Made by a program: the position numbers and the translations under genes | Assembly: GCA_964603585.1 (NCBI GenBank) | Contig: CAZRVK010000002.1 | Coordinates: 179,513 to 243,512 of the forward strand | Reading direction: 5' to 3' | Length of the DNA stretch: 64,000 nucleotides | DNA from: an uncultured Planctomycetales bacterium | GTDB lineage: Bacteria; Omnitrophota; Gorgyraeia; Gygaellales; Profunditerraquicolaceae | The notes under the pieces: generated by a model | What the model was told of the DNA's origin: nothing | The model's input: only the letters and a program-made list of their open reading frames with translations | The model's database searches: none | Shown: positions 1 to 63,603 of the stretch, piece after piece | Position numbering within the stretch: position 1 is the first letter of the stretch | Layout of the letters: every line of letters starts with the position of its first letter

Positions 1-357
1 TATTATTTTATCGACAACCGGATCACCGTAAAAACCGTTGGTGATCATAATCACGTTCCTTGCGTTTTGTTTTGCGTAATCAATGGCTTCGAATATCCCC
101 TCATATAAAAACGGCTCCCCTCCGGTCAAAACCAAATCCGGGATATCCAGCTCTACCATTTCGTCAATGATGCTCTTTATCTCTTCTACCTTGATCTCAT
201 ATTCTTTGTTAAACTCGAGGTTCTTTATCCCGCACATAATACAGTGTTGATTGCAGAGATAATTAATGGTCAATGTTACGTTACGGGGAGGAAACAGCGG
301 CCAGTCGATTTTCTTAGAAATGAAATAACGTATGCGCTCTTTATTCTTTTTTTCCAT
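1..357 (-). CDS. radical SAM protein (partial; C-terminus lies beyond window start)
   Basis: Reverse-complement translation from ATG at 357 gives MEKKNKERIRYFISKKIDWPLFPPRNVTLTINYLCNQHCIMCG... with CxxxCxxC (CNQHCIMC) and a GGEPFLY glycine-rich SAM motif. Not in the ORF track because it is truncated by the window edge. Confidence 0.6.
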   Translation of the reverse strand, partial: MEKKNKERIRYFISKKIDWPLFPPRNVTLTINYLCNQHCIMCGIKNLEFNKEYEIKVEEIKSIIDEMVELDIPDLVLTGGEPFLYEGIFEAIDYAKQNARNVIMITNGFYGDPVVDKII

Positions 358-1312
358 AATACTCTACGCCTCCTACCATACAATTCATCATACAGGGCCT
401 TTGGCAGCTGGCTACCGCACGAAGTGCATCATCGGTGCTTGATTTATTCCAGATGGTCAGGAAATCATCTTTCTTTAGATCACCCAGACAATGGTCACAA
501 ATACAAACCTTGCCGTCCACGCATACGCTAAGAAAATCACGGCCGTTCCTGCATCTGAAAATGCCCGGCTCTAACATATTCTTATAATAATTGACGATAT
601 TATTCAGATAATCCATGGTGTTAGCAACATATATGGGTGCGGAACGGTCATTTTTTATCGCAATTATCTTCTGGATCTGGGAATCCAAAGCCTTCAGGTC
701 ATCTCCCCGGACCCAGAAAGGATCGGCTAACTGATTCTGCCGCAAATCAGCGTTATCAGACAAAAATACTTCATAGGTTATATTATTGCACCCCCAGGCA
801 GAAGCTAAATTCAGGATATTCACGAGTTCAAGCACATTATTCTTTACTATAACGGTATTAACGGTTAAAAACGGTTTTTTCCCTTTTGCCTTTCTTTGCT
901 TGAGATAACGCATAAACCCGCTTAGCCTGAAAAATACCCCTTCTCCTCGAATGCTATCATGGGTTTTACTATAACCTCCGTCCAGCGATACGGTAATCTG
1001 ATCCACCGGAAGAGAAAGCAAAAGATCTGCAAAGGCAAGCCCGTCGAAACCATTGGTGACGATCTTGACTTCTTTAAAAATGGTGCGTGAGGTCTTTAAT
1101 ATTTCTGTTATTCCTTGTTTCAACAAAACCTCTCCCCCTACAAAATCTATCGTAGACACACCGGCTGCGGATAAATCCTTAAGTATTGCGATGATCTGTT
1201 TTGTCGATAACTCCTTTAGGCTAAGGGTAGAACTTTGAAGATTGCAAATCCTGCATTTAAGCTGGCATCGGTATGTAATATTAAATACTGCTGCAGAAGG
1301 TATATCTGCCAT
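341..1312 (-). CDS. radical SAM / SPASM-domain protein
   Basis: CQLKCRIC (CxxxCxxC) near the N-terminus, a GGE motif, and a C-terminal Cys-rich SPASM-like cluster (CRNG..CVDGKVCICDHC..CQRPCMMNC). Confidence 0.8.
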   Translation of the reverse strand: MADIPSAAVFNITYRCQLKCRICNLQSSTLSLKELSTKQIIAILKDLSAAGVSTIDFVGGEVLLKQGITEILKTSRTIFKEVKIVTNGFDGLAFADLLLSLPVDQITVSLDGGYSKTHDSIRGEGVFFRLSGFMRYLKQRKAKGKKPFLTVNTVIVKNNVLELVNILNLASAWGCNNITYEVFLSDNADLRQNQLADPFWVRGDDLKALDSQIQKIIAIKNDRSAPIYVANTMDYLNNIVNYYKNMLEPGIFRCRNGRDFLSVCVDGKVCICDHCLGDLKKDDFLTIWNKSSTDDALRAVASCQRPCMMNCMVGGVEYYGKKE

Positions 1313-1349
1313 AGGTTTAACCCGGGTTATTTGTTGTTATTGTCGCGCA

Positions 1350-2405
1350 TCAATTATTCAAAACCCCGCCCGAAAGGTAATCATATAATTCTTTTGCCAC
1401 AAGCGCATGCCCAGCCGCATTAAAATGATACCGGTCGCCTAAGGCCAATTTAAGGCTATTCATCCCATAATCATCGAAGGCCTTCTTCATATCGATAAAT
1501 TCAAACCCGATGCTTTTTAGCTGTGTTGAAATCCAGGCCTGCTCTTTTTGGCTGGACTCCCAATATTCAAGACTGGGGAAAACGACAAAAACGGCCTTAA
1601 AATTGTGCGCCTGGCTCAACTGCTTCAATCTTTGCAGTGCCTGTATCGTAACACCATCACCTAAATCGACATAACTCGCCGGGATTTTAAGGATTTTACA
1701 CGCCTTAACCAAAGAATGGTTCACCAGCTTATATAATTCTGAATTCATATAAAGCCAAACAGAAAACGGAACTCCCGGGCACACAGGGACACTCCTTGAC
1801 AGATCAGCGCACGCATAATATCCTTGTTTCCTTATGATCCTGTGTTTTATATCCCTGTCGTTTAAACAATACCCTACAACCACAAGGTCCGGCTTAAAAG
1901 GCAGTAGTTTCTTCTCTAAAAATTCCACCTCTTGAGTAGTTGCATATCCCGGGATACCGCAATTAACCACGATATATTCTCCGGATCTGTCTTTATTAAG
2001 CAATGCCTCCAGCTGGTAAGGGTAATAATCACTGTCTAAATCCGCGCGCGGCTCTAAACGTGTTGTCGAATCGCCCAAGACAAATATCCTGTATGCGCCA
2101 GGTGAAGCGTTGATCCTGGATTTAAAACCATAAAACCAGGTATTCGGTTCATAAAATAACCGGCTGTTACTGCTAAGCACATAGTGCGGCGGTTCACCGT
2201 TTTGAGTGTGCTGAAACGTAGCCATCCCCCACCATCGTCGGTTGTCTTTAGCCAATATCTCTAATTGGGATACTCCCAATGCAAAAGGAGAATACCTCTC
2301 ATATATCCGAAGGAAACATTCGCATGCGAATAAACCCGCGAATATAGCAAATAAAACCAGGGGTAAATTCCCGAATCGCTTAGGCATTTTAGATTTTTCC
2401 CGCAT
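1350..2405 (-). CDS. SGNH/GDSL-family hydrolase with N-terminal membrane anchor
   Basis: Hydrophobic N-terminus followed by an IFVLGDSTT block (GDS motif). Sits inside the glycan cluster. Confidence 0.55.
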   Translation of the reverse strand: MREKSKMPKRFGNLPLVLFAIFAGLFACECFLRIYERYSPFALGVSQLEILAKDNRRWWGMATFQHTQNGEPPHYVLSSNSRLFYEPNTWFYGFKSRINASPGAYRIFVLGDSTTRLEPRADLDSDYYPYQLEALLNKDRSGEYIVVNCGIPGYATTQEVEFLEKKLLPFKPDLVVVGYCLNDRDIKHRIIRKQGYYACADLSRSVPVCPGVPFSVWLYMNSELYKLVNHSLVKACKILKIPASYVDLGDGVTIQALQRLKQLSQAHNFKAVFVVFPSLEYWESSQKEQAWISTQLKSIGFEFIDMKKAFDDYGMNSLKLALGDRYHFNAAGHALVAKELYDYLSGGVLNN

Positions 2406-2408
2406 GAT

Positions 2409-4337
2409 TTAATCACAAAAGCAAGGCAAAAGGCAAGGATTACCGCATGCCTTGACCCTTGCCATCGCCTGACGGCTTTCTTTAGAATCGAAGATATTTT
2501 TTAAATAATCCTTACGCACATTCCCATAACTGCCATAACAGGTGGTAACCTCGCCGTTATTTGCAATAAGCATGGTCCTTTCCGCATAAAGGCACCTCAC
2601 ATCCTGTGGGGCTAAATTACCGCGAAAGTATTTTTTGGCTAAAGCAAGATTATTCACCGAATTGCGCAAGAGCGAAACATTTTTATTCTTAAATTCTATC
2701 AGATCATCAATAACCTGGTCCAGGACAGCTAATCTTTCCTTGGGGATCCAATACTTAACCTTGCTCGAGCGCTGTTTCATTATCAGATTGTTAGAAAGTA
2801 ACGGCTGGAATTGTATCGAATTCACATTCAGGGATTTTAAAAACCCGGCCAAAGATAAAAGCTCTTCTAAGTTCTCATTAAGTATTATGGAAATAACGTT
2901 GAAGTTTATCCCCGGGTCGGTTTTCTTAAGATATGCGAGTTTCTTCAGCCCTTTAATAGTCTTTTCAAAACACCCCTTGCCACCTCTTATATCATCATGG
3001 ATCTCCGGCGTTAAAGCGTCCAGGGAGATACTCAAAGATAGCGCACGGGAAGTTAAATAAGGCGATAATCTGCCAATGAATTTGTCATCCAATAATATCC
3101 CGTTTGTTAAAATCCCAGTATGATATTTTTTCTCTTTTACATAATCCAGTATCTCAAATATATCCTCTCGTATAAGCGGTTCACCCCCGGACAAAACAAA
3201 CTCCTTTACCCCCCAGTCATAAGCCTGGGCAATCAGGCTTTTTACCTCGTTTGTGGCAAATTCCTTGATCGGACGGTCGGATCTAATCTCACAGATATTA
3301 CATTTTAGATTACACCTATGGGTTATATCCAAGATAATGAATTCCGGGCGATCATTAAGCGGGACGGTTTCCTTGAAATCCCCGGGTAAATCCGGATCAA
3401 TGAAGTTATGTGTCCTGAAATATTCGGAAACATTCCCTGCCAAGTAGATAATTTTATGCAAAGCTAAATAAGCATAGATCCGGGATCTCTTATAAAGATC
3501 GGCCTGCCCCTGCAAAGAAACCAGGCCATTACCTAAAAGACACGAAAACCGCGGGATCTTTAAAACATTAATTATAGTGGCAAACCAAAAAGAAACCTTG
3601 CCGGTAGAGAGTTCTTTTAACAGAGGGTGATCTTTATGTATCCTTTTAACAAGTAAATTCCCCCGGCCGTAAATGTATGCCTGTTTCATAAAACTCCGCA
3701 TATTTTCATCGCGATAATGTATGACTTTTATCTTTTTATCCCAAATGAACCTGTGCCCCCCCTTAAATAACCGCCAAAAGAATTCCAGGTCTTCTCCTCC
3801 GGGCAAAGGAAATCTTTCATCGAATTTATATTTGTCAAATACCCACCTCTTTAATGAAACATTGCAGGTGGGGAAAAAAATCACCTCTTTATTTCCTTTT
3901 ATGCTGGTTTCTATGCTGAATGTGCTTAAAAACTGGCTGACCATGACCGGGGTTTTCTGATTAGAAGCCAGGGTCAAGCCGCCTACTGCGGCAATATCCG
4001 GATTACTGCGGTGTGTCTCCACCATAGCCCTTACCCAGCCAGGGTGTGCCGTACAATCATCGTCGATAAAACCAACGATTGCACTGCAACTGTTTGTGAC
4101 CCCTAAATTCCTGCCCTTTGCCGGGCCAAATCCGGGTTGAGAAAAATATCTTAAGTTTGGATGCCGGGGCCTAAACCTGTCTATCAAAGACCTGGTCTCA
4201 TCACTGGCGGCATCATCGATTATGATAACCTCAAACGCATCCTGCGGATAATCCTGATGAATAAGGGATTTCAAACATTCCGCAAGTTTATCTTGCCTGT
4301 TATATGTCGGGACGATTATTGAAATATCAGTGGGCAC
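2409..4337 (-). CDS. family-2 glycosyltransferase fused to a radical SAM/SPASM domain
   Basis: N-terminal IIVPTYNRQD...IIIDDAASDE (GT2 fold, DxD). The C-terminal half has ITHRCNLKCNICE (CxxxCxxC), GGEPLIRED and a terminal CGNPCLLPCFCD SPASM-like cluster. Confidence 0.75.
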   Translation of the reverse strand: MPTDISIIVPTYNRQDKLAECLKSLIHQDYPQDAFEVIIIDDAASDETRSLIDRFRPRHPNLRYFSQPGFGPAKGRNLGVTNSCSAIVGFIDDDCTAHPGWVRAMVETHRSNPDIAAVGGLTLASNQKTPVMVSQFLSTFSIETSIKGNKEVIFFPTCNVSLKRWVFDKYKFDERFPLPGGEDLEFFWRLFKGGHRFIWDKKIKVIHYRDENMRSFMKQAYIYGRGNLLVKRIHKDHPLLKELSTGKVSFWFATIINVLKIPRFSCLLGNGLVSLQGQADLYKRSRIYAYLALHKIIYLAGNVSEYFRTHNFIDPDLPGDFKETVPLNDRPEFIILDITHRCNLKCNICEIRSDRPIKEFATNEVKSLIAQAYDWGVKEFVLSGGEPLIREDIFEILDYVKEKKYHTGILTNGILLDDKFIGRLSPYLTSRALSLSISLDALTPEIHDDIRGGKGCFEKTIKGLKKLAYLKKTDPGINFNVISIILNENLEELLSLAGFLKSLNVNSIQFQPLLSNNLIMKQRSSKVKYWIPKERLAVLDQVIDDLIEFKNKNVSLLRNSVNNLALAKKYFRGNLAPQDVRCLYAERTMLIANNGEVTTCYGSYGNVRKDYLKNIFDSKESRQAMARVKACGNPCLLPCFCD

Positions 4338-5535
4338 CTAAACCCCTTTCGCTCTCGGCCTTATTATTACCCCGGTGATAACCTTTAAGGCGCTCACCTC
4401 TCGAAACCGGACTAAAATAAAAATTCCTGTAGCAATCATTCATGAACCCATCGAATTCTTCTCTGCGGGTACAGCCTAATAAACAAGGGTTGGCGCATTG
4501 TTTAATACATTTTCTGAATGTATTCGCCTTGCGCGAATACCAAAGCTGCCGCAAGCTATCTTTATAAATATCTCCGAAGCTTATTTCACCTTGCATTGGC
4601 TCTTGAGCACAAAAATACATTTTGCCATCTTGAGAAACGATCATCCGATTAAAACCCGTATAACATTTCTGCTTAGGCAAGGTGCCCCTGAAATACCATT
4701 TCACCATTTGTAATTGATCTACTCCATTAAATATAAAATCGAAGTTTTCTTTGGATGAAAGTTTATACTCTACTAATTTGTTTATTGCCCGATCAAGTTC
4801 TGGATAGCGATCCCTGGGTATCCAATTTGAATCCGGGTTATCCCTTATCCTGGCGTCCGTGTTATCACTAACAACCGGCTGAAACCCGATACAGGCAACT
4901 TCTAATTTTCTTGCTAAATCCACAATATCCAGCAATTCTTCTATATTGTGATCCATTATAGTGCAAAAAATAACTATGTTGGGTAAAAAAGACTTCTTCG
5001 CTTTCTTTTTGCTATTTAACAAATTTATGTTGGATAATATCCGCTGGAAAATACCTTCGCCCCTGATTTTCTTGAAAGTATCTTCACACGCACCATCAAT
5101 CGAAACCACCAGATCTTCAAGCCCGGAGGCAAACATTTTGTCCACTATATCTAACCGGTCCAGAAGGGTGCCGTTTGTCGAAACCAGGGTTTTCATATTG
5201 CAGGTGTTGGCAAATTTTATGATCTCAAAGATATCCTCCCGTAAAAAAGGCTCTCCTCCCAGTAAAAACAACTGTTTAATCCCCATTTCCCGGGCTTGCA
5301 TTATCAAATTTATTATTACTTCATAAGGCAGCTCTGAATTCAGCCCGGATTGTTTAACTATTTCTGACCGTTCATGCATGTTGCACATTTTGCACCTTAA
5401 GTTACAACGGAACAAAAAACACAACTGCAACATATCCGGCTCAACCAAAGGATAACCTATTTGCCTGGAAAGATAAAATCTAAAATGTCTAAGTAATATT
5501 CTGGCTGTAGACTGCCAGTTCAAGACATCATTCAT
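4327..5535 (-). CDS. radical SAM / SPASM-domain protein
   Basis: FRCNLRCKMCNM (CxxxCxxC), GGEPFLREDIFEII, and a C-terminal CYTGF..YFCAQE...CIKQCANPCLLGC cluster. Paralogous to the adjacent rSAM genes. Confidence 0.8.
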   Translation of the reverse strand: MNDVLNWQSTARILLRHFRFYLSRQIGYPLVEPDMLQLCFLFRCNLRCKMCNMHERSEIVKQSGLNSELPYEVIINLIMQAREMGIKQLFLLGGEPFLREDIFEIIKFANTCNMKTLVSTNGTLLDRLDIVDKMFASGLEDLVVSIDGACEDTFKKIRGEGIFQRILSNINLLNSKKKAKKSFLPNIVIFCTIMDHNIEELLDIVDLARKLEVACIGFQPVVSDNTDARIRDNPDSNWIPRDRYPELDRAINKLVEYKLSSKENFDFIFNGVDQLQMVKWYFRGTLPKQKCYTGFNRMIVSQDGKMYFCAQEPMQGEISFGDIYKDSLRQLWYSRKANTFRKCIKQCANPCLLGCTRREEFDGFMNDCYRNFYFSPVSRGERLKGYHRGNNKAESERGLGAH

Positions 5536-5552
5536 TTTTCACCCCATGCCAC

Positions 5553-8270
5553 CTATCCATCAATACTAAAGTCGCCAGCAAAATAAAAATAATTCCCGGG
5601 GGCCATAATTAATTTAATCGGGTCCAAACACTGTATTAACCGGCCCCGGTGATAAACGTCGGAATTCACGATATTAAGGCGCTGATTGGCATTTACCCCT
5701 TGATTAAACAATGTGATCGTAGGCAATGATTTCTCCTGATCCGAGGTTTTAGCTACGCCAATACGCCTGGCATTATCCTCACTCGAATAAATAACATCCC
5801 ACTTGTCATCGAGGTTATTATTAAATACGGGAAAATCCTGCACCAAGGTATCTTTTATCCACCGGGAGTATATCTCTGAAACCATAAGATTTGTCTGCGC
5901 GGATTCGATCTCTACCTCTTTATTGATTTCCATTCTAACATTAAATTCAATAAGATTATCGTCTTTTATACCTATCTGCCAATATTGCGTCAGAGGTAAA
6001 TACACCCACTCTCCGGCAGCCTTAATTATCCGAGTATCATTTTCTATAATCTTCCATCTGGCAAAAGAAGCCGAATCATACCACCTCCCCTTAGAGCACA
6101 TGGAGGTATAAAGCCCCAGTTTCTTAGTCAGTTCGAAGCCATCCCAAAATATACGCCCGCTTCCCTGGCTAAAAATAATCTTCAGCCTATTGCCTTTCAA
6201 CTCATTTGAAACGGGACGACGCATTAAATCATTCCGCCCCAAATGCATGTCTAATTTAAAGCAAGGATATGTACCGACAGATAATTTATTGGCCCTTTCC
6301 GGATCTACTTTATCTATACGCATTATTCTTGCCTTATCATAAAAATTAGAATTGATGATTTTCGCATAATTATGAGATAGATTGGAGAACTTCACGTTTA
6401 ATTCCGGCAATTGTGCCTCTGGGACGGAAAGCCCCAATTCACCTTCAGGCAGGCATATTTGCAGCATATCCATTTCGCTTTCCCGGAAACTTTCCGGAAA
6501 AACTCCTACGCCATACTTGCTAAACCAATGTGAATAACCATCACAACAGGCAATAGAAAAATGCTGCTGATCAATAACTAACTCTTCAGCAACCTGGATG
6601 CTCACATCCCAATTAACAGAATTGCCACCGTTAATTTCTGCCTCCCAGATCTGGATCAATGCAAGACCAGGCCACCGACCTAAAGCAATGATCTTATTAC
6701 TACCTTGTTTCTTAACCTCCCATTGCGCCAGATTAGAAAAATACCCTTTCCCGCCAGAATAAACAGCTGTGCTGATGTGGTTGTTCTTGGTTAAGCTCCT
6801 GCCTTCATATTCGAGGATAAACCTGCCGTTATCGAACACGAGCTTTAAATCCTTGGCAGATAAAACAAACTCATTTTGTGTTTTTGAAAGATATCCGTCT
6901 ATATCTGCAGTATTTATCACCATCTTGCCTGCAAAACAAATGGACTGATCCGCCTGATGGACTGACTGGAGGGAAAAAGGGTTCAATCGGTACTGCAATA
7001 TGCGTGACCGCGATAAATAATCCGAGTTTATGATCGATCCCTGCGACAAGCCTCCTAACGGCAGTTTTTCAAACAGAAAAGACTTCATAATGGAATCATC
7101 CGAAGGCAAAGAATACACCCCAAGACAGGCGCTCGTAACAAGCCTTGTAAATATAGGTACCGGGATTTTATCTTCACCGCTAATTACAGGGAAAACCCCT
7201 TTCTTGGAATCAGCAAACCATTGGAGATATTCTTCTTTCATTGCAACATTAACATGCATTTCAAGCAAATCCGGGCTTTTATCCACCTCCAGCTCTATAT
7301 CCCAGGTAACCTCCATATTATCTGAAACCTCTATGTGCCAAACTTGAGTCAACCCTAATTGATAAAAATTACCGGCTGCCGTAAAGGCCCCGAAAGAGGT
7401 ATTTTTAATCTCCCATTCCGCTTGAGCAGAATTATACCACCTGGATCCGGCGTTAAATGCCGTATAGGCGCCCAAAGGAGAAGTAACTGGATCGCCGTTC
7501 CAGCTCAAAAATAATCTGCCATTATTAAATATTAAACCAAGGGGCCCCCTTTCAATTATCGCTATCCCCTCCGGGCTGCCAATGGCTTGAGAGTAAACAG
7601 GCACAACCTTAGAAGATGTATCGTCTTTTACCAGGGTGCCATTCTTCATAAAAAGCGCCCTTTTGCATAACCGTTGTAAAAGCGCCATATCATGGGTCAC
7701 AATAACAATAGTCCTGGATTGCTCTTTCAGCTCCAACATCTTTTTTATGCATTTTCTTTGAAAATATTCATCCCCCACCGACAAGGTATCATCGATAAGC
7801 AAAATATCCGGATCCGTATGAATGGCTATGGCAAAGGCCAGCCGCACGAACATACCCTGCGAATAACATTTTACCGGAGCATGAATGAACTTGCCTATCT
7901 CTGCAAATCCCACGATCTCTTCATATTTGGTTTCGATTAAATCTTTAGATAAACCAAAAAGTTCGGATTGCAGATAAAGATTTTCCCTGCCGGTCAATTC
8001 CGGCTGAAAACCAGCACCTAACTCCAGCAGCCCGGACACATTCTTCGATACTTTTATCTGGCCGCGGTCAGGTTTTAACATCCCTGCGATCAACTTTAAA
8101 ATCGTGGTTTTACCAGAACCATTTTCACCGATTATACCGACAATCTCTCCGGGTTCTACCGAAAATGTTACCCCTCTTAACGCCCAGAAATTATCCCAGG
8201 AGGCCTTGCCCTCGGCCATAAACTTGATCCGGTACATTTCCCAAACATCGCTTAATTCAATTATCGCCAT
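5553..8270 (-). CDS. wzt: ABC transporter ATP-binding protein, Wzt-like, with three tandem C-terminal substrate-binding-type domains
   Basis: Walker A GENGSGKTT, signature-like YSQGM, Walker B ILLIDDTLSVGD in the first ~250 aa. The remaining ~650 aa hold three ~160-aa repeats sharing NGR(L/F)(F/I)L..W.G / W...A.W(E/K)(I/V)K / Q.W.I motifs. Confidence 0.8.
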   Translation of the reverse strand: MAIIELSDVWEMYRIKFMAEGKASWDNFWALRGVTFSVEPGEIVGIIGENGSGKTTILKLIAGMLKPDRGQIKVSKNVSGLLELGAGFQPELTGRENLYLQSELFGLSKDLIETKYEEIVGFAEIGKFIHAPVKCYSQGMFVRLAFAIAIHTDPDILLIDDTLSVGDEYFQRKCIKKMLELKEQSRTIVIVTHDMALLQRLCKRALFMKNGTLVKDDTSSKVVPVYSQAIGSPEGIAIIERGPLGLIFNNGRLFLSWNGDPVTSPLGAYTAFNAGSRWYNSAQAEWEIKNTSFGAFTAAGNFYQLGLTQVWHIEVSDNMEVTWDIELEVDKSPDLLEMHVNVAMKEEYLQWFADSKKGVFPVISGEDKIPVPIFTRLVTSACLGVYSLPSDDSIMKSFLFEKLPLGGLSQGSIINSDYLSRSRILQYRLNPFSLQSVHQADQSICFAGKMVINTADIDGYLSKTQNEFVLSAKDLKLVFDNGRFILEYEGRSLTKNNHISTAVYSGGKGYFSNLAQWEVKKQGSNKIIALGRWPGLALIQIWEAEINGGNSVNWDVSIQVAEELVIDQQHFSIACCDGYSHWFSKYGVGVFPESFRESEMDMLQICLPEGELGLSVPEAQLPELNVKFSNLSHNYAKIINSNFYDKARIMRIDKVDPERANKLSVGTYPCFKLDMHLGRNDLMRRPVSNELKGNRLKIIFSQGSGRIFWDGFELTKKLGLYTSMCSKGRWYDSASFARWKIIENDTRIIKAAGEWVYLPLTQYWQIGIKDDNLIEFNVRMEINKEVEIESAQTNLMVSEIYSRWIKDTLVQDFPVFNNNLDDKWDVIYSSEDNARRIGVAKTSDQEKSLPTITLFNQGVNANQRLNIVNSDVYHRGRLIQCLDPIKLIMAPGNYFYFAGDFSIDG

Positions 8271-8271
8271 A

Positions 8272-9063
8272 TTAAATATGCTTTAATATCCTATCCTCAA
8301 AATACACGGAAATAAATAAACCAAGGCACACGCTTAATACCGTCCAACAGGCAACTTCCTGAAAAGTGGATATTGCGGGGATCTTACCTTGAAAGACTAT
8401 ATCATGATAAAAAGTAACAAAAGGGAGCGCCGGATTGAACTTAAAGATCCATCTAAACGCCTCCGGAACCATCTCTATGGAATAAAACACCGGCGTTGCC
8501 CAAAACCAAAACATCATAAAAACACCAAGAAAATGTTCGATATCCCGGAAGAAGATATTGGCTACCGAACAAATTAACCCTATCCCGCTGGCAAATAGAT
8601 ACGTAAACAAAAGGATGAATGGCAGCAAAGGAAAGACCCAGGCGATTTTAGGGTTGGAGAGCAAGAAAACCGGGTAGATCAAACACCAGCTCAAAAGAAA
8701 TGTGAAAAAGTAAGAAAGTGTTATACAAAGAGGTAATATTTCCTTGGGCAGGCCAAATTGATGCAAAACCCCGCGTTGATTGATAAAAGCCGGCGTTGTT
8801 TCAGATACCGCTCCGGACAAAAACATCCACGGCAAGATCCCGGAAAGCACAAATAATCCGAAATTTTCCATTTCCGTCTTAAAAACAACGGTAAATACGA
8901 AGGTTATTGCCAGCATTATCAAAACAGGGTTAATTATCACCCAGAAAACACCCAGGAAAGATGCAGCGTATTTAGCCTTAAATTGTTTTACCGCCATAAG
9001 CCATAAGGAGCGCCGGAAATGGTATATCTTCTTAATTTTTTCGGCAATTAATCTTAAAAGCAT
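8272..9063 (-). CDS. wzm: ABC-2 type transporter permease (Wzm/TagG/KpsM-like)
   Basis: 263 aa, six hydrophobic segments. Immediately upstream of and translationally coupled to the Wzt-like ATPase. Confidence 0.7.
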   Translation of the reverse strand: MLLRLIAEKIKKIYHFRRSLWLMAVKQFKAKYAASFLGVFWVIINPVLIMLAITFVFTVVFKTEMENFGLFVLSGILPWMFLSGAVSETTPAFINQRGVLHQFGLPKEILPLCITLSYFFTFLLSWCLIYPVFLLSNPKIAWVFPLLPFILLFTYLFASGIGLICSVANIFFRDIEHFLGVFMMFWFWATPVFYSIEMVPEAFRWIFKFNPALPFVTFYHDIVFQGKIPAISTFQEVACWTVLSVCLGLFISVYFEDRILKHI

Positions 9064-9134
9064 CCCGGGATTTAACCATCCTTCCAGATTATTTTAGATC
9101 AGTTGCATTTTTTACTAACTTTACACCCTCTGCG

Positions 9135-10457
9135 TTACGCCATCCCCCGCTCATCCCCCCAGAGCTGCATGGCTAAATTCGCGCCATCCAACAACGCATC
9201 TTCCATTGACATATACCGCCATGAACCATAGCGCCCACAGGAAAAAATATTATTCTTAGCTAAAAATCCAAGGATCCCTTCCCGTGACCGCTTATACTGC
9301 CTGTCATAAATCGGATAACCATATTTAATATCGTTTACGTCTTCTGCACAAATTTGATCGGTTTTATCCAGGATCCCGGTCTTTAGCAGGTCCGCGCGGA
9401 TCTTGCGGATCATTTCGGATTTATTCACGCGGCCATTCTTAGGATAAGAAACTTCGGCATATAAAGAATACTCCCCGGGCCGGGAGAGAACGAAATTATG
9501 ATAAAACCCTACCCGAAAAAAACAAATCTCCTTTTGAGGAAAATACATCCAGTGCCGGGAGGAATTATCATGTTTTTTAATCCCCAGGTTTAAATTAAAA
9601 ATGGAATTCCACTGCAGCTGGTTAAATAATTTACTTATCTCTGCAGGCAGGCTTTTAATCATGCCCGGCAATTCAGGCAAAGGGATGGTAGAAATCAAAT
9701 AGTCGTATTTTTGCCTGATCCCGGAGGCGGTTACTACCTCTTTTTTATCAAGATCGATACCCACCACCTTAGATCCAGTACTAATGTTTTTAGTCTCATT
9801 TGACAAAGCCGAAATCAACCGGCTTATCCCCCCGTTTTTGGGATACCAAAAACGGGCATTATATCCGAATTGCCTTTTGCTATCTTCGACGGTTCCTTCG
9901 ATCAGCTGTTCTAATGAAGGCACCGGGATCACCCCATCCAGCCACTCACAAGTCAGGTCACGAGGATCCAGCGTCCAGAATTTACGGTTATACGGCACCA
10001 TAAAATGGCGGGCGATACCTTTGCCAAAGGTCAGGTTGATCCAATTTAAAAAACCCGGATCTTTCCTATTACGGCTTTCGCATCCATACCTGCGGGCGTT
10101 AATGAAACCCAAAACGCACTCCTTGGAAACACGCGGAGGCAGGCCATGCAGATTTGCCTGAAAAGGATATGGGATATACCTTCCGCAGGTATACACCCAG
10201 GCACTTCTTTTATGAACCAGCAAATTGTCCGGCAACAGGTGCTTGATCAAATCGAATGATTCCCTGCGTTTAAAATGCAGCAGATGCCCTGAACAATCAA
10301 ACGTGAAGCCGTTTATTTGTTTTGAGCAGCATAAACCTCCTACGATGGGATCTTTTTCCAAAATCCGGTAATCTGCGCCTTTTTTATCGAGTTGCCGCGC
10401 GGCGCTTAAACCCGCTATCCCTGCGCCTAAAATAAGGAATTTTTTCTTAAGCATCAA
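9135..10457 (-). CDS. FAD-dependent oxidoreductase (amine-oxidase fold; UDP-galactopyranose mutase-like)
   Basis: N-terminal ILGAGIAGLSAA dinucleotide-binding motif. Sits in the glycan cluster and overlaps the MraY-like gene by 11 nt. Confidence 0.55.
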   Translation of the reverse strand: MMLKKKFLILGAGIAGLSAARQLDKKGADYRILEKDPIVGGLCCSKQINGFTFDCSGHLLHFKRRESFDLIKHLLPDNLLVHKRSAWVYTCGRYIPYPFQANLHGLPPRVSKECVLGFINARRYGCESRNRKDPGFLNWINLTFGKGIARHFMVPYNRKFWTLDPRDLTCEWLDGVIPVPSLEQLIEGTVEDSKRQFGYNARFWYPKNGGISRLISALSNETKNISTGSKVVGIDLDKKEVVTASGIRQKYDYLISTIPLPELPGMIKSLPAEISKLFNQLQWNSIFNLNLGIKKHDNSSRHWMYFPQKEICFFRVGFYHNFVLSRPGEYSLYAEVSYPKNGRVNKSEMIRKIRADLLKTGILDKTDQICAEDVNDIKYGYPIYDRQYKRSREGILGFLAKNNIFSCGRYGSWRYMSMEDALLDGANLAMQLWGDERGMA

Positions 10458-11430
10458 TTTTGACCCCGTTCATTTTAAAACCAACTGCTATCCCCGCCAC
10501 AAGTATTACGGCGATAACCATAATACCCAAGCCATTAGAAACCTGGCTTATTATCACCCCAGAAATAGCAAAAACCAAGCTCAAGCTTAACATTAAAAAA
10601 AGCGCCTTACGATTAGAATGGCCGATTTTTAAGAACCGCAGGACAAGATGATCCCCGCTTTTATGGAAAACCGGCCTTTTTTGTTTGACCCTCATACAGG
10701 CCAAGAATATCGTATCGAAGATCGGAAACCCCAGGATCAATAATGGAGTAAGTAACGCCGGGTGCCTACCGCTCTGCGCGTAGCTGATTAAGATCGCGAT
10801 CCCCGCCAAGAAAAAACCCAGGAAATGGCTTCCGGAATTACCCAGATAAACCCTGGCCGGAGGTAAGTTATAGATCAAAAATGCCCCCACCGCACCAAGC
10901 AAGGCAGCCAATAAAGCCGCCGCCATTATATTTCCATTTAAAAAAGATATGATAAAGAATGCCCCGGCAACGATAACCGCAACCCCGCCGGCCAACCCAT
11001 CAACCACATCTAACAGATTAAAAGCATTAGTAATCCCGATCATCCAGAGAAAGGTAATAAGAATATTGGCAAAAAGCCCTATATGGATAATCTGTGTCCG
11101 TAAACCGGATAAAACAAGGATCGAAACTGCCAGAGCCTGAACAATTAACTTGGTTTTTACTGAAAGTTCCTTCAAATCGTCTATCATTCCGAAAATAAAC
11201 ATTGCCGAAGAAGCTAATATAAGCGCCATAACAGGCTTTGGCAAAAACATCACCGGGGTTATCCAAAGCCAATACACCAGAATAACGGACAAGATAATGC
11301 TTAGCCCTCCGACAAGAGGAACGCCTTTAAAAAGAAACTTGTGTTTCCAGGAAAGTTTTATTAACAGGACAAGCAAGACCAATCCTAAGAAAAAACTCAA
11401 GATTGAAAAAAGGATATATTGTAAAGCCAT
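10447..11430 (-). CDS. polyprenyl-phosphate sugar-1-phosphate transferase (MraY/WecA family)
   Basis: Polytopic membrane protein with a GMIDDL motif and NAFNLLDVVDGLAGG (the NxxNxxDGxDGL motif of the family). Confidence 0.8.
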   Translation of the reverse strand: MALQYILFSILSFFLGLVLLVLLIKLSWKHKFLFKGVPLVGGLSIILSVILVYWLWITPVMFLPKPVMALILASSAMFIFGMIDDLKELSVKTKLIVQALAVSILVLSGLRTQIIHIGLFANILITFLWMIGITNAFNLLDVVDGLAGGVAVIVAGAFFIISFLNGNIMAAALLAALLGAVGAFLIYNLPPARVYLGNSGSHFLGFFLAGIAILISYAQSGRHPALLTPLLILGFPIFDTIFLACMRVKQKRPVFHKSGDHLVLRFLKIGHSNRKALFLMLSLSLVFAISGVIISQVSNGLGIMVIAVILVAGIAVGFKMNGVKIDA

Positions 11431-11523: not shown

Positions 11524-14500
11524 TTAACGACAATTCATTGAAAGAGGCACCCTGCAGCAGAGGATCTTTATATATCGAAAAACCCGCGCAGCACCCTTAT
11601 AGTGGCATAATACCGCTTTGACCGTTCGATTATACTCATCTAAAGCCAGCGTAGCTTTATCCTCACCTAATTGATGTTTACTGTAATTAGCCTCTTCGAA
11701 CCTTTCCGTAAAGCGAATAAAGGTTCTATCGGAAATACCATACTTATTCTCGGCTATCACGGCTAATTCTAACGGGGGGATGAATTCCAGGTTCTGCGGG
11801 CTTAAAATCGAGAGTAATTCATTTAAATTACGGTATAAGGCAATGATAAATCCTCTGGGATCACTGTGCATCAGGCGGCATAACCGCTGCTTGGCCTGTT
11901 CAGCGATTAAATACAATACGAGAAAAGCTGCTGACGCCGCCAAAAGAATTGATCCGAATACCTTGGCCGCAATAACAAAGATCCACTCCCAGGTAACAAT
12001 AACCGAAACCTTAACCGGCAGGCTTTCTACCCCGCCGTATTTCGCATTAACTGCAGTTTCTCCGATAATTAAAGGATTGATCTTGCCTTTTTCTATTTTT
12101 AGTATTCTGGGCTTAGAAACATGCCAAAGGACTTCTCCGGTCAAATCCAAGAGGCTGTCATCGCTATAATATCCTTCTGCCTTTAGAGTTAATTGATCGA
12201 ACATGGATATCCTTGGATCAGACGGGGACAGCAAAATAGAAATAAGTTTGGCGCTATCTACTGTAACTATAGCGTTATTGCTCTTTATCCCGGAGATCTG
12301 GGCATAAATACCGGCGCTTCCCACAGAAACGCCCTGGACTTGCCCATGTTTAGAAACTCTTGCGACCGACTCATCCTGGCTCACCCACTCTACTGCCGAG
12401 GTAAGGTCGATCTCGGTTTTATCGCTAAGCACCCCCTGGGCTATTATTTCTCCGCTGGCGCCAAAAGCAAAATTCTGGGATTCCGGGATTATTTTTATTG
12501 CCACCAGGTTCTTCTCTATTGCCTCTACCCCCTCGTCTCTTTCAGCTTGTTCATTTTTGGCACCTTCTTTTGAAAAATTCTCTTCCTGCTCTAAATTAAA
12601 ACCTATCGCCAAATACCCGCTCAACTCCTTTAGACTATTTGCCAGGTTATCTCCTAATTGCCGGCTGATAACACCCTGTTCCTGCAATTTATCTATCCTG
12701 CCTTCTATGGAACCAGTCTCTTCTTCCAGGCCTTTTAAACTGTCAGTTTGGCTTAATTTATCAATTCTACCCGCAAGTTCTTTTTTGGTTTCCGGATTAG
12801 AACTATCCAGGTGTTTCTTAATTTCATCTTTTTTCTCTCCAACCGCACGTTGAGCCTCGATTTTAACCAACTCTAATTCTACGTTCTGCATCTTTTGTTT
12901 CTTTACATCGTCACCGCTGTCCCTTTTATCTGTAATCTCATCACCGCCAGTCCCTTTACCGCCGCCACTGCCTTCTGCACCTCGAATTTGCCCAAAACCA
13001 TCGCTAACACCGTCGCTCTTACTGCCTATGGAAATAGATTCAGCACCTGCGGCGGTGTTCAAACCCTCTCTAGCGGATTGACCTTGGGGATCAATCTTTG
13101 CCGTTAGATCATCTGTTTTCCTGGACAAATCCTGTTTTTCCAAACGCTCGGCCATTGCCTTCTCTTCATGGCCAGAAGATGCCTGGCCTGCGGCATTGTC
13201 TTTATTTGCCCCTCCTTGAACACCCGCTTCAGACAGATTATCCGATCCAGCCCCGGCAGATATTCCTTTATTGGACTGGCGAGCTCCCGTTTCTTGCTTG
13301 CGCCCGCCTTTTTTGCCTGAACTTCTGGCAACCAAATCTTTTTTTGCATCATACAATTTCTCTAACTCAATGATGATCAGGCGTTGCCCGGAAGAAGAAG
13401 CGCTTGAACGAAAATCATCTATCTTTTTTTGCAGTAAATCCAGGTCTTGCATGTTTTCCGCGCGTTTTATACCTTCCAATGCCTGGTTAAAATCTTCCCT
13501 GGCAAAAGCTTCTTGCAAATCACTCTTTACCATTAAACTATCCAGCTGTTGAGAAATAACCTGCTCATCTAAATGAACATCCAAATCTGCCGCCCCCTGT
13601 TCAGGCAGGTGTCGGCCTTCTATTTCTACATTTTCCAGTTCCTCCAGGATAGCCTTAAGATCATCGTGGTTATCTTCCAATTTAGCCGCACTTACCGAGT
13701 ATTCGAGCTCGTCGATCGTCTTTTCCGCCTGATCCAGCTTAACTTTGGAGAGATTTGTTTTCTCCAAACCTTTCTTCAGCGTGCGGTTTTTTTGCGCCAT
13801 AAGCATTCCCACTTTTAAAGAAAGCACTTCCTCCATATCCTCAATTATGTTTTTTTGCGCACCAACCGCTAATCCAGCCAAACTTTCCATTTGTTCCTGC
13901 ACCTGTTTTAAGCTGGAGGATTTACTCATTTTTTCAATATTGCCAAGGGCATGAAATAAAGGATCCCGCATCTCTTTGCCTTCTTCGGAGATCTTTTGCT
14001 TCAACTCTTTCATTTTCTTTAAATAAAGCTGGTAAAGTTTCCACTCTTTAAGAGAAACCACGGATGTTTTTTCTTCTTTTTTCAATTCCTTGTCCAATGA
14101 AGATCCCATGATCTCCGTATATGCGTTTTTTGCGTTTTTAACTGCCCCCTCCGAAGTATCGCTTTTCTGGATCCTACTTGTAGACTGATATATAAGGACC
14201 CGGTCTTTTATATTCAGGGGGTTGCTTTTTAGAACCTCCATTGCCTTGTTACGGGATATTTGCATATTTAAGAGCGCTTTGGTCTCCAGATAATCATTAG
14301 CTAAGGTTAAAATCTGCTCTGTATCATTTTTCTCCAGCCCCGGGCCTGGCTCCTTTAAAAGACTGACCAGCCCCTGATGCGCCGATTCCACCTCCACAGT
14401 ATCCGCGGAGTTTTTTATCAGGCGCTCTATAAAGCTCAATACCTGCCGGGCTGTTTCTACGGAGTCGGTCTTATTGATCAGGACGGTCGTTTCATTTTGC

Positions 14501-59645: not shown

Positions 59646-62365
<2,720 letters not shown>

Positions 62366-62366
62366 A

Positions 62367-63458: not shown

Positions 63459-63603
63459 TTTCCCTCCCTATTATTATTAATTAAATGGTATAAAAAAACT
63501 ATATAGTATTGGTAGTAATAGTGGTTTTGTTTCTGTTTAAAAGTTTTTAACCTGTTTAAATAACTATATTTACTTAAGTATTTATTTGTGGATATCTTTG
63601 GTA
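63459..63603. other. AT-rich dnaA-dnaN intergenic region (candidate oriC / DNA-unwinding element)
   Basis: 145 nt at >80% AT. Contains one DnaA-box-like 9-mer (TGTGGATAT at ~63589-63597; complement ATATCCACA matches TTATCCACA in 8 of 9 positions). Confidence 0.35.

Follow-up and report, generated by a model that had tools for sequence, protein, structure and literature searches.

A Wzm/Wzt-type export locus of Candidatus Omnitrophota that carries an array of radical SAM enzymes

Introduction

ABC-transporter-dependent O-polysaccharide pathways, such as those of E. coli O9a, the Klebsiella O1/O2 galactans and A. aeolicus WzmWzt, have a WecA-type initiator, cytoplasmic glycosyltransferases (GTs), the permease Wzm and a Wzt with an extra C-terminal module, and lack Wzx and Wzy. 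The locus described here shares all these traits, as well as the pyranose-furanose mutase of the Klebsiella galactan pathway. By contrast, its Wzt module consists of three repeats of ~220 aa without detectable Wzt_C homology, and such loci are dominated by 4–11 radical SAM (rSAM) genes in place of NDP-sugar pathway genes. The galactan module of mycobacterial arabinogalactan (WecA, Glf, GlfT1/GlfT2, Wzm/Wzt) has the same parts list (PNPT, UGM, GT2 and ABC-2 exporter), but it has no rSAMs, its family cutoffs are far above the scores of the locus proteins, and the UGM of the locus is of the long eukaryote type. Among teichoic-acid enzymes, which operate with TarGH, the cytoplasmic GT-A proteins TarP, TarS and RmlT are the nearest structures to the GT2 half of a fusion protein of the locus, and the nucleotide-binding domain (NBD) of its Wzt is about 39% identical to TagH. 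However, the locus has no gene for polyol-phosphate synthesis (TagF/TarL-like), and its GT2 is fused to an rSAM.

Known rSAM enzymes offer further points of comparison. The sugar-acting twitch/SPASM and class B enzymes of antibiotic pathways (BtrN, HygY, AprD4, DesII, BlsE, GenK) share with those of the locus the rSAM core and a C-terminal auxiliary-cluster domain; the four-Cys pattern of the locus resembles the single-cluster twitch type, and B12-type members also occur at 27 of 31 loci. Nevertheless, sequence likeness is at superfamily level only, and the antibiotic enzymes work singly in small-molecule pathways, not in arrays of up to 11 within an export operon, and are not fused to GTs. 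HpnJ, which acts with the GT2 enzyme HpnI, and Cds provide an established precedent for a GT2 followed by an rSAM acting on a membrane-anchored sugar. Their systems differ in that they use a single rSAM, lack WecA, Wzm and Wzt, and make a head group instead of a polymer, and homology to the locus beyond the superfamily was not shown. Finally, SPASM maturases of RiPPs (SuiB, CteB, AlbA, PqqE, MftC) have the Pfam SPASM match and the overall fold in common with the enzymes of the locus, but the canonical CX2CX5CX3C motif contrasts with CX3CX3C and four universal cysteines at the locus, which lacks the RRE, precursor, peptidase and peptide exporter of those systems.

Results

The DNA analyzed was a window of 64,000 nucleotides from a member of Candidatus Omnitrophota, a group that also carries a separate, conventional Wzc/ligase polysaccharide cassette. 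Eight complete minus-strand ORFs were present where an initial annotation of the sequence had placed them, the domains assigned to them reached Pfam gathering scores, and each gene call, from the WecA-like transferase through the rSAMs, was upheld by HMM searches. The rSAM genes are not frameshifted: they are intact and have full-length orthologues. The limits proposed for the cluster (1–11430), however, proved too narrow, as did the count of four rSAMs. A public contig (L087) identical to positions 1–4553, with 0 mismatches, adds 11.4 kb of cluster (at least 11,391 bp beyond position 1), including two additional GT2 genes and another SGNH-like gene; with it, the locus has 10 rSAM genes that encode at least 11 rSAM domains. 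In this genome the set comprises ten twitch/SPASM-type domains and one B12-dependent enzyme. The locus is at least 23 kb long (about 30 kb if a displaced GT1 gene is counted), and its GTs comprise this GT1 and no fewer than three GT2 enzymes, among them a GT2::rSAM fusion and a 439-aa protein. In a scan for transmembrane (TM) segments, WecA and Wzm were the only polytopic proteins of the locus, which has neither Wzx nor Wzy. No WbdD-like terminator was recognized, and no ligase or acceptor gene was identified at the locus, so that a destination in LPS, capsule, protein or lipid cannot be assigned.

The presumed initiating enzyme is a polyprenyl-phosphate HexNAc-1-phosphate transferase of the WecA/MraY superfamily (10447–11430, minus strand; Glycos_transf_4 PF00953, 1.8e-35), with 11 predicted TM segments and a match to the WecA family TIGR02380 (1.1e-27) under its cutoff. 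Next to it, a FAD-dependent pyranose-furanose mutase homologue (9135–10457, minus strand) was identified by its Pfam FAD/amine-oxidase fold and by phmmer against the PDB, which matched residues 2–416 to the UGM of T. cruzi (4dsg, 4.1e-50) and also retrieved that of A. fumigatus (about 3e-44). The alignment keeps the motifs xGH, PYPFQxN, PYNxKxW and GR(F/Y)GxWRY, whereas the bacterial-type family TIGR00031 matched at only 3.7e-08 and did not reach the equivalog cutoff. The initial annotation had no GT1 partner for WecA. A GT1-type enzyme (GT-B, CAZy GT4-like; 17378–18517, minus strand; Glycos_transf_1, 2.7e-31) is 52% identical over 374 aa to a GT adjoining WecA in a sister locus (L011:361-1530). 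Sister loci have its orthologue immediately ahead of WecA; it was found in 24 of them, and in the window it is parted from WecA by a 6-kb insertion, a module of MoxR, DUF58 and a 1222-aa protein. An SGNH/GDSL hydrolase (1350–2405, minus strand; Lipase_GDSL_2 PF13472, 4.7e-13), membrane-anchored by one N-terminal TM segment according to the TM scan, probably handles an (O-acyl) ester. With orthologues in only 2 sister loci, it is a variable accessory gene.

The exporter consists of Wzm, an ABC-2 permease (8272–9063, minus strand; ABC2_membrane PF01061, 1e-12, and TM scan), and a Wzt of 905 aa (5553–8270, minus strand; ABC_tran). The best NCBIfam match of Wzm was the galactan export permease Wzm/RfbD (2e-16, under cutoff). 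Mycobacterial galactan-export families were the top-ranked match of Wzm and the third-ranked match of Wzt, without reaching a cutoff. The Wzt NBD (residues 1–235; 7566–8270, minus strand; PF00005, 1.3e-21) was matched by Foldseek to the NBD of the A. aeolicus O-antigen Wzt (6m96_A; TMt 0.87, 40% identity) and to that of TagH (39% identity). The initial annotation had overlooked the remaining 670 aa (residues 236–905; 5553–7565, minus strand), which form three tandem beta-rich repeats with approximate bounds 6891–7565, 6201–6890 and 5556–6200 (all minus strand). These thirds are mutually homologous (hhalign probability 100%, E about 1e-42), and in an AF2 model of the whole protein (mean pLDDT 84) the extension is beta-rich save for two short helices. 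It gave no Pfam or PDB sequence match, Wzt_C included; sequence homology of the repeats to any CBM was likewise undetectable, and a Foldseek overlap with the A. aeolicus CBD was not discriminating. The extension was seen in 35 Wzt-like proteins only, of which all three with a taxon name belong to Candidatus Omnitrophota/Omnitrophica, and it sits where a canonical Wzt_C sits in a distant variant locus. We propose that it is a lineage-specific glycan-recognition module, a role that is inferred.

The signature gene of the locus encodes a 642-aa GT2::rSAM fusion (2409–4337, minus strand; Glycos_transf_2, Radical_SAM and SPASM at 22.6 bits). In this observed architecture, a GT-A domain (residues 1–311; 3405–4337, minus strand; Glycos_transf_2) is joined by a disordered linker (residues 312–327) to an rSAM and auxiliary-cluster domain (residues 328–642; 2412–3356, minus strand; Radical_SAM and SPASM). 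More than 120 full-length homologues with 51–65% identity were found, and all 14 with a taxon name are Candidatus Omnitrophota/Omnitrophica. Invariant among them are DxD, ED, CxxxCxxC, GGE and five C-terminal cysteines. Foldseek searches with an AF2 model (pLDDT 90) matched the GT2 half to TarP, TarS, RmlT and WrtF, and the rSAM half to SuiB (top), BlsE (TMt 0.70), SkfB and DesII.

Three further rSAMs lie in the window. A semi-conserved member of 402 aa, rSAM_A (4327–5535, minus strand), is of SPASM/twitch type (PF04055, 6e-22; PF13186, 2.3e-09, 37.8 bits) and has relatives at ≥35% identity in 42 loci. It met no NCBIfam family at its cutoff, its best PDB sequence matches were weak (MoaA 5e-9, BlsE 2e-8), and CteB aligns with its residues 39–347. 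The 323-aa rSAM_C (341–1312, minus strand) is also of SPASM/twitch type (PF04055, 2.6e-16; PF13186, 7.4e-05), its SPASM score of 23.4 bits exceeding the gathering threshold of 21.5. It had no relatives at ≥35% identity in the sampled loci and is thus a lineage-specific part of the variable block. Of rSAM_D (369 aa), translation yields only the N-terminal 119 codons, cut at the window edge (1–357, minus strand, ORF 357-1); the complete gene is present in L001, L002 and L087. CxxxCxxC is found in all four window rSAMs, as the initial annotation held. GGEP, assigned to all four as well, occurs in three, but the 323-aa protein has GGEV. The C-terminal cysteine clusters had been called SPASM-type, and each of the three complete rSAMs does match both Radical_SAM and SPASM in Pfam; however, the motif is reduced, following Ca-x17-Cb...Cc-x3-Cd(-x3-Ce) versus the canonical seven-Cys SPASM motif, and the four cysteines common to all auxiliary domains are twitch-like. 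All NCBIfam matches of the paralogues were far under cutoffs, and by sequence they are no closer to any one of the RiPP, cofactor and sugar rSAM groups than to the others. Since the TM scan found no TM or signal-like segment in them, the rSAMs are taken to be cytoplasmic, which fits completion of a polymer before export. Fusions of GT2 with rSAM, of rSAM with rSAM, and of GT2 with two rSAMs occur at the loci, and tie the rSAMs physically to glycosyltransfer and to one another.

Whether the combination of multiple rSAMs, Wzm/Wzt and WecA is conserved, a question left by the initial annotation, has a clear answer: the order GT1-WecA-UGM-Wzm-Wzt-GT2::rSAM, followed by a variable block of 4–11 rSAM genes, was observed in dozens of metagenomic loci. 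Named homologues come nearly all from Candidatus Omnitrophota, an uncultivated phylum. Among 34 non-redundant loci whose sequence extends 7 kb or more upstream of the fusion, the long Wzt was present in 32, Wzm in 31, UGM in 27 and WecA in 25. All 31 loci extending 8 kb or more downstream carried 4–11 rSAM genes (median 7), with a B12-type rSAM among them in 27. Because the same arrangement appears in dozens of independent loci, chance is excluded as its source. In sister loci the variable block also holds genes of sugar-tailoring types, among them those for a NodU/TobZ-type carbamoyltransferase, a class I methyltransferase, a PMT_2 GT-C and a GH44-like protein. A distant variant, labelled 'archaeon', whose fusion is 44% identical, has rSAM arrays beside Wzm and a Wzt with canonical Wzt_C.

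Discussion

These results support the reading of the region as a glycan locus made by the initial annotation, which had also named findings that would refute it (cysteine clusters not of SPASM/twitch type, a precursor peptide with an RRE, frameshifted rSAM genes); these were checked and none went against it. The polysaccharide-export context was strengthened by the UGM homologue, by the roughly 40% identity of the Wzt NBD to that of A. aeolicus and by the synteny across metagenomes. On balance, the region would make up the upstream half of an operon that assembles a cell-envelope glycan and exports it by the Wzm/Wzt route. Its product is probably, though by no means certainly, a lipid-linked glycan, likely with furanose residues, that is exported by the ABC transporter after tailoring in the cytoplasm by radical enzymes, a chemistry that is inferred and not shown.

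In such a pathway, the WecA-like transferase would prime polyprenyl phosphate with HexNAc-1-phosphate at the cytoplasmic face, and the chain would be extended by GT1 and GT2 domains (the fusion, the 439-aa GT2 and at least one more), using a furanose donor such as UDP-Galf from the UGM homologue. Tailoring of the chain, or of its sugar donors, by the oxygen-sensitive rSAM battery would take place before export from the cytoplasm. Sugar-acting relatives provide precedents for each of the reactions that are plausible here: dehydrogenation, epimerisation, deoxygenation, decarboxylation, ring contraction and C-methylation. That such radical steps act in series on a sugar or on a lipid-linked intermediate, as the initial annotation had it, remains an undemonstrated inference from context, and the identity of the substrate (glycan or donor) and each single reaction are inferred as well. 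Acyl esters could be acted on by the membrane-anchored SGNH enzymes. The finished lipid-linked polymer would leave via Wzm/Wzt, the three-repeat module presumably recognizing the completed or modified chain, as the carbohydrate-binding Wzt_C domain classically does; the final acceptor is likewise inferred. Structural neighbours of the modelled fusion that act on sugars (BlsE and DesII for the rSAM) or decorate polymers (TarP, TarS and RmlT for the GT2) lend support. Against this explanation, no product is backed by biochemical or structural-chemistry data, and the top Foldseek match, SuiB, is a RiPP maturase. Also weighing against it are the lack of a closer sequence tie of the rSAMs to sugar-acting enzymes, the undetected homology of the Wzt repeats to Wzt_C or a CBM, the WecA and UGM cutoffs that were missed, the absence of an identified ligase or acceptor gene, and the separate Wzc/ligase cassette of Omnitrophota.

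That the rSAMs act on soluble nucleotide sugars instead of the lipid-linked chain, taking the place of the SDRs, aminotransferases and dehydratases found in ordinary O-antigen loci before GTs incorporate the products and export proceeds unchanged, seems unlikely, albeit worth keeping in mind. Apart from the UGM homologue, the loci showed no classical genes for NDP-sugar modification, and BlsE and DesII, structural neighbours here, use small nucleotide- or aglycone-linked sugars, as do BtrN, HygY and AprD4. Yet the rSAM-GT2 and rSAM-rSAM fusions fit a membrane-bound assembly complex at least equally well, and the number of rSAMs per locus exceeds the need of a few donor pathways; the evidence does not separate donor from chain level. 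It is improbable that the product is a small exported glycolipid, with a sugar or lipid moiety rearranged by the rSAMs and no polymer. HpnJ and the calditol synthase Cds do rearrange hopanoid and GDGT head groups, so that rSAMs on lipid-linked sugars have precedent (HpnH/HpnI/HpnJ, Cds); the archaeal tetraether synthase Tes was among the weak PDB and NCBIfam matches, and ABC-2 transporters can export lipids. However, the locus has no lipid-biosynthesis genes, it encodes several GTs (GT1 and at least three GT2), its Wzt NBD is nearest to O-antigen and teichoic-acid exporters, and the conserved UGM homologue and the canonical glycan-binding Wzt_C of the variant locus point to a glycan chain.

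Peptide maturation is the role of most characterized SPASM enzymes, SuiB and SkfB were among the best structural matches, StsB, WgkB and ScmE among the weak NCBIfam ones, and some sister loci carry PMT_2-type GT-C genes for protein or glycan. Even so, modification by the rSAMs of a ribosomal peptide or surface protein, for instance a giant Omnitrophota protein, which the GTs would then glycosylate, is very hard to sustain. As the initial annotation had stated for its shorter cluster, a precursor peptide, an RRE and a C39 transporter are all absent: genes over about 23 kb are separated by only 0–93 bp, too little for a precursor ORF; searches detected no RRE/PqqD domain, for which the rSAM N-termini (15–70 aa) are in any case too short; and neither a C39 nor any other peptidase is present. 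The transporter is Wzm/Wzt, no peptide exporter, and RiPP pathways use neither WecA nor UGM.

The view that the locus matches no well-characterized pathway also held, in that no curated family describes it and no account of such a locus was found in the searchable literature. It joins an ordinary polysaccharide-export machine to an rSAM array, and points to an undescribed, radical-tailored surface sugar polymer. The loci are observed to have conserved ends and a highly variable rSAM middle, which suggests that radical enzymes, and not the usual NDP-sugar pathway genes, create the diversity of surface structures from strain to strain.

Gene content of the locus and its continuation past position 1

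The minus strand between window positions 1 and 11430 contains eight complete ORFs and one truncated ORF, separated by 0–93 bp or overlapping slightly. Following the direction of transcription, Pfam identified a Glycos_transf_4 protein of the WecA/MraY superfamily (10447–11430), an FAD/amine-oxidase-fold protein (9135–10457), an ABC2_membrane protein (Wzm; 8272–9063), an ABC_tran protein (Wzt; 5553–8270), a Radical_SAM plus SPASM protein (rSAM_A; 4327–5535), a single 642-aa protein combining Glycos_transf_2, Radical_SAM and SPASM domains (hereafter the fusion; 2409–4337), a GDSL/SGNH protein (1350–2405) and another Radical_SAM plus SPASM protein (rSAM_C; 341–1312). Translation of positions 357–1 gave the initial 119 codons of a further radical SAM enzyme (rSAM_D). 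Every gene assignment made for this region in the initial annotation, which had interpreted it as a glycan-export cluster with four radical SAM/SPASM paralogues, was matched by Pfam. The ORFs are unbroken and have full-length orthologues, ruling out an assembly artefact or frameshift. Exact-match look-up of the SGNH protein gave nothing, scans for promoters and terminators yielded only the numbers expected by chance and marked no operon boundaries, and tRNA and Rfam scans detected nothing in or near the locus. Across the 64 kb, strand bias is extreme: nearly all ORFs of at least 150 aa run on the minus strand, and every 2-kb bin shows negative GC skew. GC content drops to 0.35 in 62001–64000.

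Public contigs of the same population were recovered by exact-match look-up of the window proteins. Of these, L087 matches window 1–4553 exactly (0 mismatches) and reaches 11,391 bp past position 1. The sequence beyond the window edge encodes the remainder of the 369-aa rSAM_D and a 787-aa protein made of two radical SAM domains. Radical SAM enzymes of 355, 385 and 394 aa are also encoded there, as is a B12-binding one of 450 aa (L087 14445–15797; precomputed Pfam). The other genes are for a further membrane-anchored SGNH-like protein (407 aa), a GT2 of 439 aa (GT2_439), a 262-aa protein that has two TM segments and whose tail is predicted to form a coiled coil, and one more GT2, of which only the start is present before the contig ends. 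The extension thus supplied more radical SAM, GT2 and SGNH-like genes and no precursor-peptide gene. The four radical SAM genes first noted are present, but the locus holds at least 11 radical SAM domains in 10 genes. Because the extension breaks off within that last GT2 gene, where a 19-kb Logan contig ends, the true end of the cluster was not reached, and locus sizes and radical SAM counts are lower bounds.

Proposed initiation, furanose supply and export

The protein encoded at 10447–11430 matched PF00953 (1.8e-35) and has 11 TM segments, thereby meeting the profile of a putative initiator of the polyprenyl-phosphate N-acetylhexosamine-1-phosphate transferase type. Its sugar specificity could not be assigned, since the WecA equivalog TIGR02380 scored 97 bits against a cutoff of 326. 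The FAD protein aligned over residues 2–416 (415 residues) with the UDP-galactopyranose mutase (UGM) of T. cruzi (4dsg; 4.1e-50) and matched that of A. fumigatus (~3e-44), and its GxGxxG, xGH loop, PYPFQxN, PYNxKxW and GR(F/Y)GxWRY motifs align with those of solved UGMs. The bacterial-type model TIGR00031 remained far below cutoff, which places the protein in the long, eukaryote-type subgroup. It is, by sequence, a clear homologue of these mutases, and catalysis on UDP-Gal itself is inferred. Related mutases convert other sugars. Given the homology and the aligned motifs, a furanose donor is the likely product, its exact sugar not being assignable.

The Wzm (PF01061) and Wzt (PF00005) genes adjoin with a 1-bp gap, and in Foldseek comparisons the nucleotide-binding domain (NBD) of Wzt resembled the O-antigen Wzt of A. 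aeolicus (TMt 0.87, ~40% identity) and TagH (39%). A TM scan found WecA and Wzm to be the only polytopic proteins of the locus, the glycosyltransferases and radical SAM enzymes having no TM segments. No Wzx or Wzy family was found by Pfam in the locus, and no ligase gene (e.g. of the WaaL type) was seen there, the remaining genome not being covered. In its initiation and export chassis, the locus can be recognised as one of the ABC-transporter-dependent glycan pathways, and its parts list comes closest to those of the galactan systems of Klebsiella and mycobacteria. The published hypervariable polysaccharide cassette of Omnitrophota, of Wzc/ligase type, is distinct from it.

Wzt carries an unusual C-terminal part. 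Beyond the NBD, 670 residues consist of three homologous repeats of ~220 residues (hhalign E ~1e-42), and this part was found only in 35 Wzt-like proteins, of which the three with a taxon name all belong to Candidatus Omnitrophota/Omnitrophica. In an AF2 model (mean pLDDT 84 for the whole 905 aa) the repeat part is beta-rich apart from two short helices. Wzt_C (PF14524), the carbohydrate-binding domain expected of Wzt where chains are capped, gave no match in this protein at E ≤ 1, and searches with the repeat profile against PDB and Pfam returned no sequence match. Foldseek with the full model retrieved mostly NBD matches, which does not settle whether the repeats resemble a carbohydrate-binding domain. 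The triple repeat occupies the exact position of the classical, non-homologous carbohydrate-binding domain (Wzt_C in the distant variant of the locus described below). It is a testable candidate for a new carbohydrate-recognition domain.

Radical SAM enzymes and the glycosyltransferase fusion

All complete radical SAM proteins matched PF04055 (2.6e-16 to 6e-24). CxxxCxxC and GGE motifs could be aligned across nine paralogous domains and are invariant in 83 orthologues of the fusion. The motifs reported initially for the four window enzymes were largely borne out: CxxxCxxC occurs in all four and GGEP in three, but the 323-aa rSAM_C has GGEV. No NCBIfam equivalog reached its cutoff for any of the enzymes, the best scores being ~70–106 bits against cutoffs of 380–650; going by these profiles, the window enzymes are uncurated members of the broad MoaA/PqqE/SkfB-type group. 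Pairwise identity among the nine twitch/SPASM-type domains, aligned over their full length, is 23–35%, and judged on this alignment they are old paralogues, not recent duplicates.

The C-terminal cysteine clusters had been taken as SPASM-type. Scores for PF13186 of 37.8, 22.6 and 23.4 bits against a gathering score of 21.5 uphold the Pfam assignment, but the canonical seven-Cys, two-cluster motif (CX9-15GX4C...CX2CX5CX3C...C) was not met in the aligned domains. Its first half is there (C-x17 with GX4C) and its second half reads CX3CX3C(XC), giving a reduced auxiliary pattern Ca-x17-(GX4)Cb ... Cc-x3-Cd(-x3-Ce). Four cysteines are common to all nine domains, the fifth is missing in two paralogues, and the fusion family has five invariant C-terminal cysteines. 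The four shared cysteines and the altered second half favour a single, twitch-like auxiliary cluster, and the pattern is consistent with this better than with a two-cluster SPASM domain, the number of clusters being inferred. Class B architecture, an N-terminal B12-binding domain followed by Radical_SAM, was found in the gene outside the window and in sister-locus members; no B12-binding radical SAM enzyme lies within the window.

An AF2 model of the fusion (pLDDT 90) comprises two domains joined by a disordered linker (residues 312–327). By Foldseek, the GT-A half resembles the polymer-decorating enzymes TarP, TarS, RmlT and WrtF, and the radical SAM half resembles SuiB, BlsE (best superposition, TMt 0.70), SkfB and DesII. 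Larger proteins occur in sister loci (L078/L080, L006) and among related protein matches (P0302, P0276), including radical SAM proteins of 991, 694 and 666 aa, a 963-aa GT2::rSAM::rSAM, an 880-aa GT2::rSAM and a 1179-aa protein with a GT2 and two rSAM/SPASM domains; in a 1161-aa sister protein, ~520 unassigned residues precede the fusion. Such large multi-domain fusions suggest that the enzymes work as physical assemblies. Large multi-stretch matches of the exhaustive search were rejected as relatives, being mostly multi-GT2 proteins without radical SAM domains. Among these, P0283 and similar proteins (1200–4400 aa) are unusual giants built from four to eight GT2 domains in tandem and are unrelated to the radical SAM system; one example of 1862 aa with six GT2 domains is labelled Candidatus Roizmanbacteria.

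Peptide or cofactor maturation as alternative roles

Most of what is known of SPASM/twitch radical SAM enzymes concerns the maturation of peptides and cofactors, along with single steps of antibiotic sugar pathways. Across ~23 kb, gaps of 0–93 bp leave no intergenic room for a precursor peptide, and the small ORFs of at least 40 aa that were listed all lie inside or antisense to large genes. No PqqD-like RiPP recognition element (RRE), fused or stand-alone, was detected by Pfam in the locus, and most paralogues could not accommodate an N-terminal one (~90 aa) because CxxxCxxC starts at residue 16–77. Neither a leader peptidase nor a peptide exporter is present in the locus, whose transporter is Wzm/Wzt. 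The RiPP reading was rejected for want of precursor space, RRE, peptidase and peptide exporter, and the initial statement that precursor gene, RRE and C39/peptide exporter are lacking held over the extended locus. A cofactor-maturation cluster was likewise considered and rejected, as similarity to the W-cofactor, NirJ and AhbD families was only sub-threshold. Modification of an exported glycan is the reading retained here.

Conservation and variability across sister loci

The fusion, the signature gene of the locus, has more than 120 full-length homologue clusters at 51–65% identity. All 14 homologues with a taxon name belong to Candidatus Omnitrophota/Omnitrophica, most rows being unnamed; named matches of the 385-aa radical SAM enzyme are likewise Omnitrophota/Omnitrophica, with one exception labelled only 'bacterium'. 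This taxonomic spread rests on source labels and metagenome loci. Searching genome contigs with the single fusion protein gave one locus, and scanning metagenomes with an alignment of 83 fusions gave 79 loci, whose ORFs were called and then annotated with the window proteins. The recurrent order is [PAC2][HAD] GT1 – WecA – UGM-like – [TPR] – Wzm – Wzt (~905 aa) – GT2::rSAM – rSAM block, the block often ending in rSAM (~385 aa) – rSAM (~395–410 aa) – GT2 (~435 aa) – small protein. In the 34 non-redundant loci where 7 kb or more of sequence was available upstream of the fusion, the long Wzt is present in 32, Wzm in 31, the UGM-like protein in 27 and WecA in 25. All 31 loci with at least 8 kb downstream contain 4–11 radical SAM genes (median 7), a lower bound because flanks were limited to 10 kb, and 27 of these 31 include B12-type enzymes, an assignment that was verified. 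The combination of radical SAM enzymes, Wzm/Wzt and WecA therefore recurs across metagenomes.

GT1, WecA, UGM, Wzm, Wzt, rSAM_A, the fusion, the radical SAM paralogues rSAM_G and rSAM_H, and GT2_439 form a widely recurring core. The SGNH genes, rSAM_D and the paralogue rSAM_F have one to six counterparts each among the sampled loci, and no close counterpart of rSAM_C, the double radical SAM protein or the 262-aa protein was found among them. By analogy, this arrangement, in which the ends are conserved and the middle varies, is the one seen in surface-polysaccharide loci. Accessory genes in the variable block of sister loci encode a NodU/TobZ-type carbamoyltransferase, a class I methyltransferase, a PMT_2 GT-C, a GH44-like protein and extra GT2s, which are, from their family assignments, carbohydrate-tailoring types. 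In L006, two U32-peptidase-family genes (708–4905) lie just upstream of Wzt, beside a B12-rSAM gene; the U32 family includes O2-independent hydroxylases, and these genes may represent another anaerobic tailoring activity.

A GT1 gene (17378–18517) is 52% identical to the GT1 that directly adjoins WecA in sister loci. Here, genes for a MoxR ATPase (16432–17358), a DUF58 protein (15189–16430) and a 1222-aa Big_2 multi-TM protein (~8 TM; 11524–15192), all on the minus strand, lie between GT1 and WecA. Because GT1 abuts WecA in sister loci, the MoxR/DUF58 (Bat-like) module looks like an insertion into a glycan operon. Upstream of GT1, also on the minus strand, are an unannotated 249-aa ORF (18523–19272) and the HAD hydrolase (19336–19968) and PAC2 (19965–20975) genes, the latter two being conserved neighbours in many sister loci. 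Farther out, the minus strand encodes a 457-aa protein (22848–24221) with very strong matches to both eukaryote-type hexokinase domains (Hexokinase_1 2.4e-63, Hexokinase_2 3.7e-75), which is uncommon in bacteria. It also encodes a protein of 806 aa (26757–29177) in which DUF3857 and TPR accompany a transglutaminase-like core, adjacent to a 652-aa ORF (24802–26760) without Pfam match.

A distant variant was found in L088 (ERZ24794644 NODE_1784) and L089 (GCA_016784125.1 JADHVI010000011.1, labelled 'archaeon' at NCBI), with a fusion of 44% identity. It contains 7–8 further radical SAM genes (SPASM and B12), four GT2s, GT1, a PMT-like gene and Wzm on both strands, and its Wzt, of 399 aa, has a canonical Wzt_C. 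Since radical SAM genes still lie beside a glycan exporter in this variant, the link between radical SAM array and glycan export survives deep divergence.

Proposed pathway and implications

Functional statements on the locus rest on homology, gene fusion and synteny, and the following steps are inferred. WecA would prime polyprenyl phosphate, and GT1 and GT2 domains would build a chain with furanose supplied by the mutase. Before export, the cytoplasmic, TM-less radical SAM enzymes would act on the lipid-linked glycan while it grows, or else on its donors. Wzm/Wzt would export the polymer, and the repeats of Wzt would recognise the chain once it is completed or modified. SGNH enzymes would handle acyl groups. 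An ABC-transporter route suits oxygen-sensitive Fe-S enzymes, because the polymer is completed inside the cell. Precedents for radical SAM enzymes acting on sugars include dehydrogenation (BtrN), epimerisation (HygY, NeoN), dehydration (AprD4), deamination (DesII), decarboxylation (BlsE), ring contraction on lipid-linked sugars (HpnJ, Cds) and C-methylation by class B enzymes such as GenK.

The locus is not described in the literature that was searched, where matches on Xanthomonas and Cronobacter were irrelevant. An array of 4–11 radical SAM genes replacing NDP-sugar pathway genes has no described counterpart, nor have radical SAM fusions to glycosyltransferases and to each other, or the triple-repeat Wzt module. 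The chance of a product without chemical precedent is substantial. A more specific proposal is put forward only tentatively, at somewhat less than even confidence: that Omnitrophota make an unknown class of envelope glycopolymer, in which radical SAM arrays diversify a lipid-linked, furanose-containing chain (by C-methylation, deoxygenation/epimerisation, ring contraction or even C-C/ether cross-links between sugars) and the triple-repeat Wzt proofreads it before export. If true, the substrates of twitch/SPASM radical SAM enzymes would extend to a new class, polysaccharides, and anaerobes would possess a radical route to surface antigen variation.

A conserved, phylum-wide operon pairing 4–11 radical SAM enzymes with WecA, UGM, Wzm and Wzt would open up this substrate class and predict new sugar chemistry. 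Because the ends of the locus are conserved and its radical-enzyme middle varies, enzyme discovery can draw on it as a natural library of orthogroups. Omnitrophota are abundant, uncultivated, ultra-small and probably host-dependent, and what they display at the surface probably plays a central part in attaching and in evading phages or predators. The locus would make the cell surface of these bacteria accessible at the molecular level for the first time.
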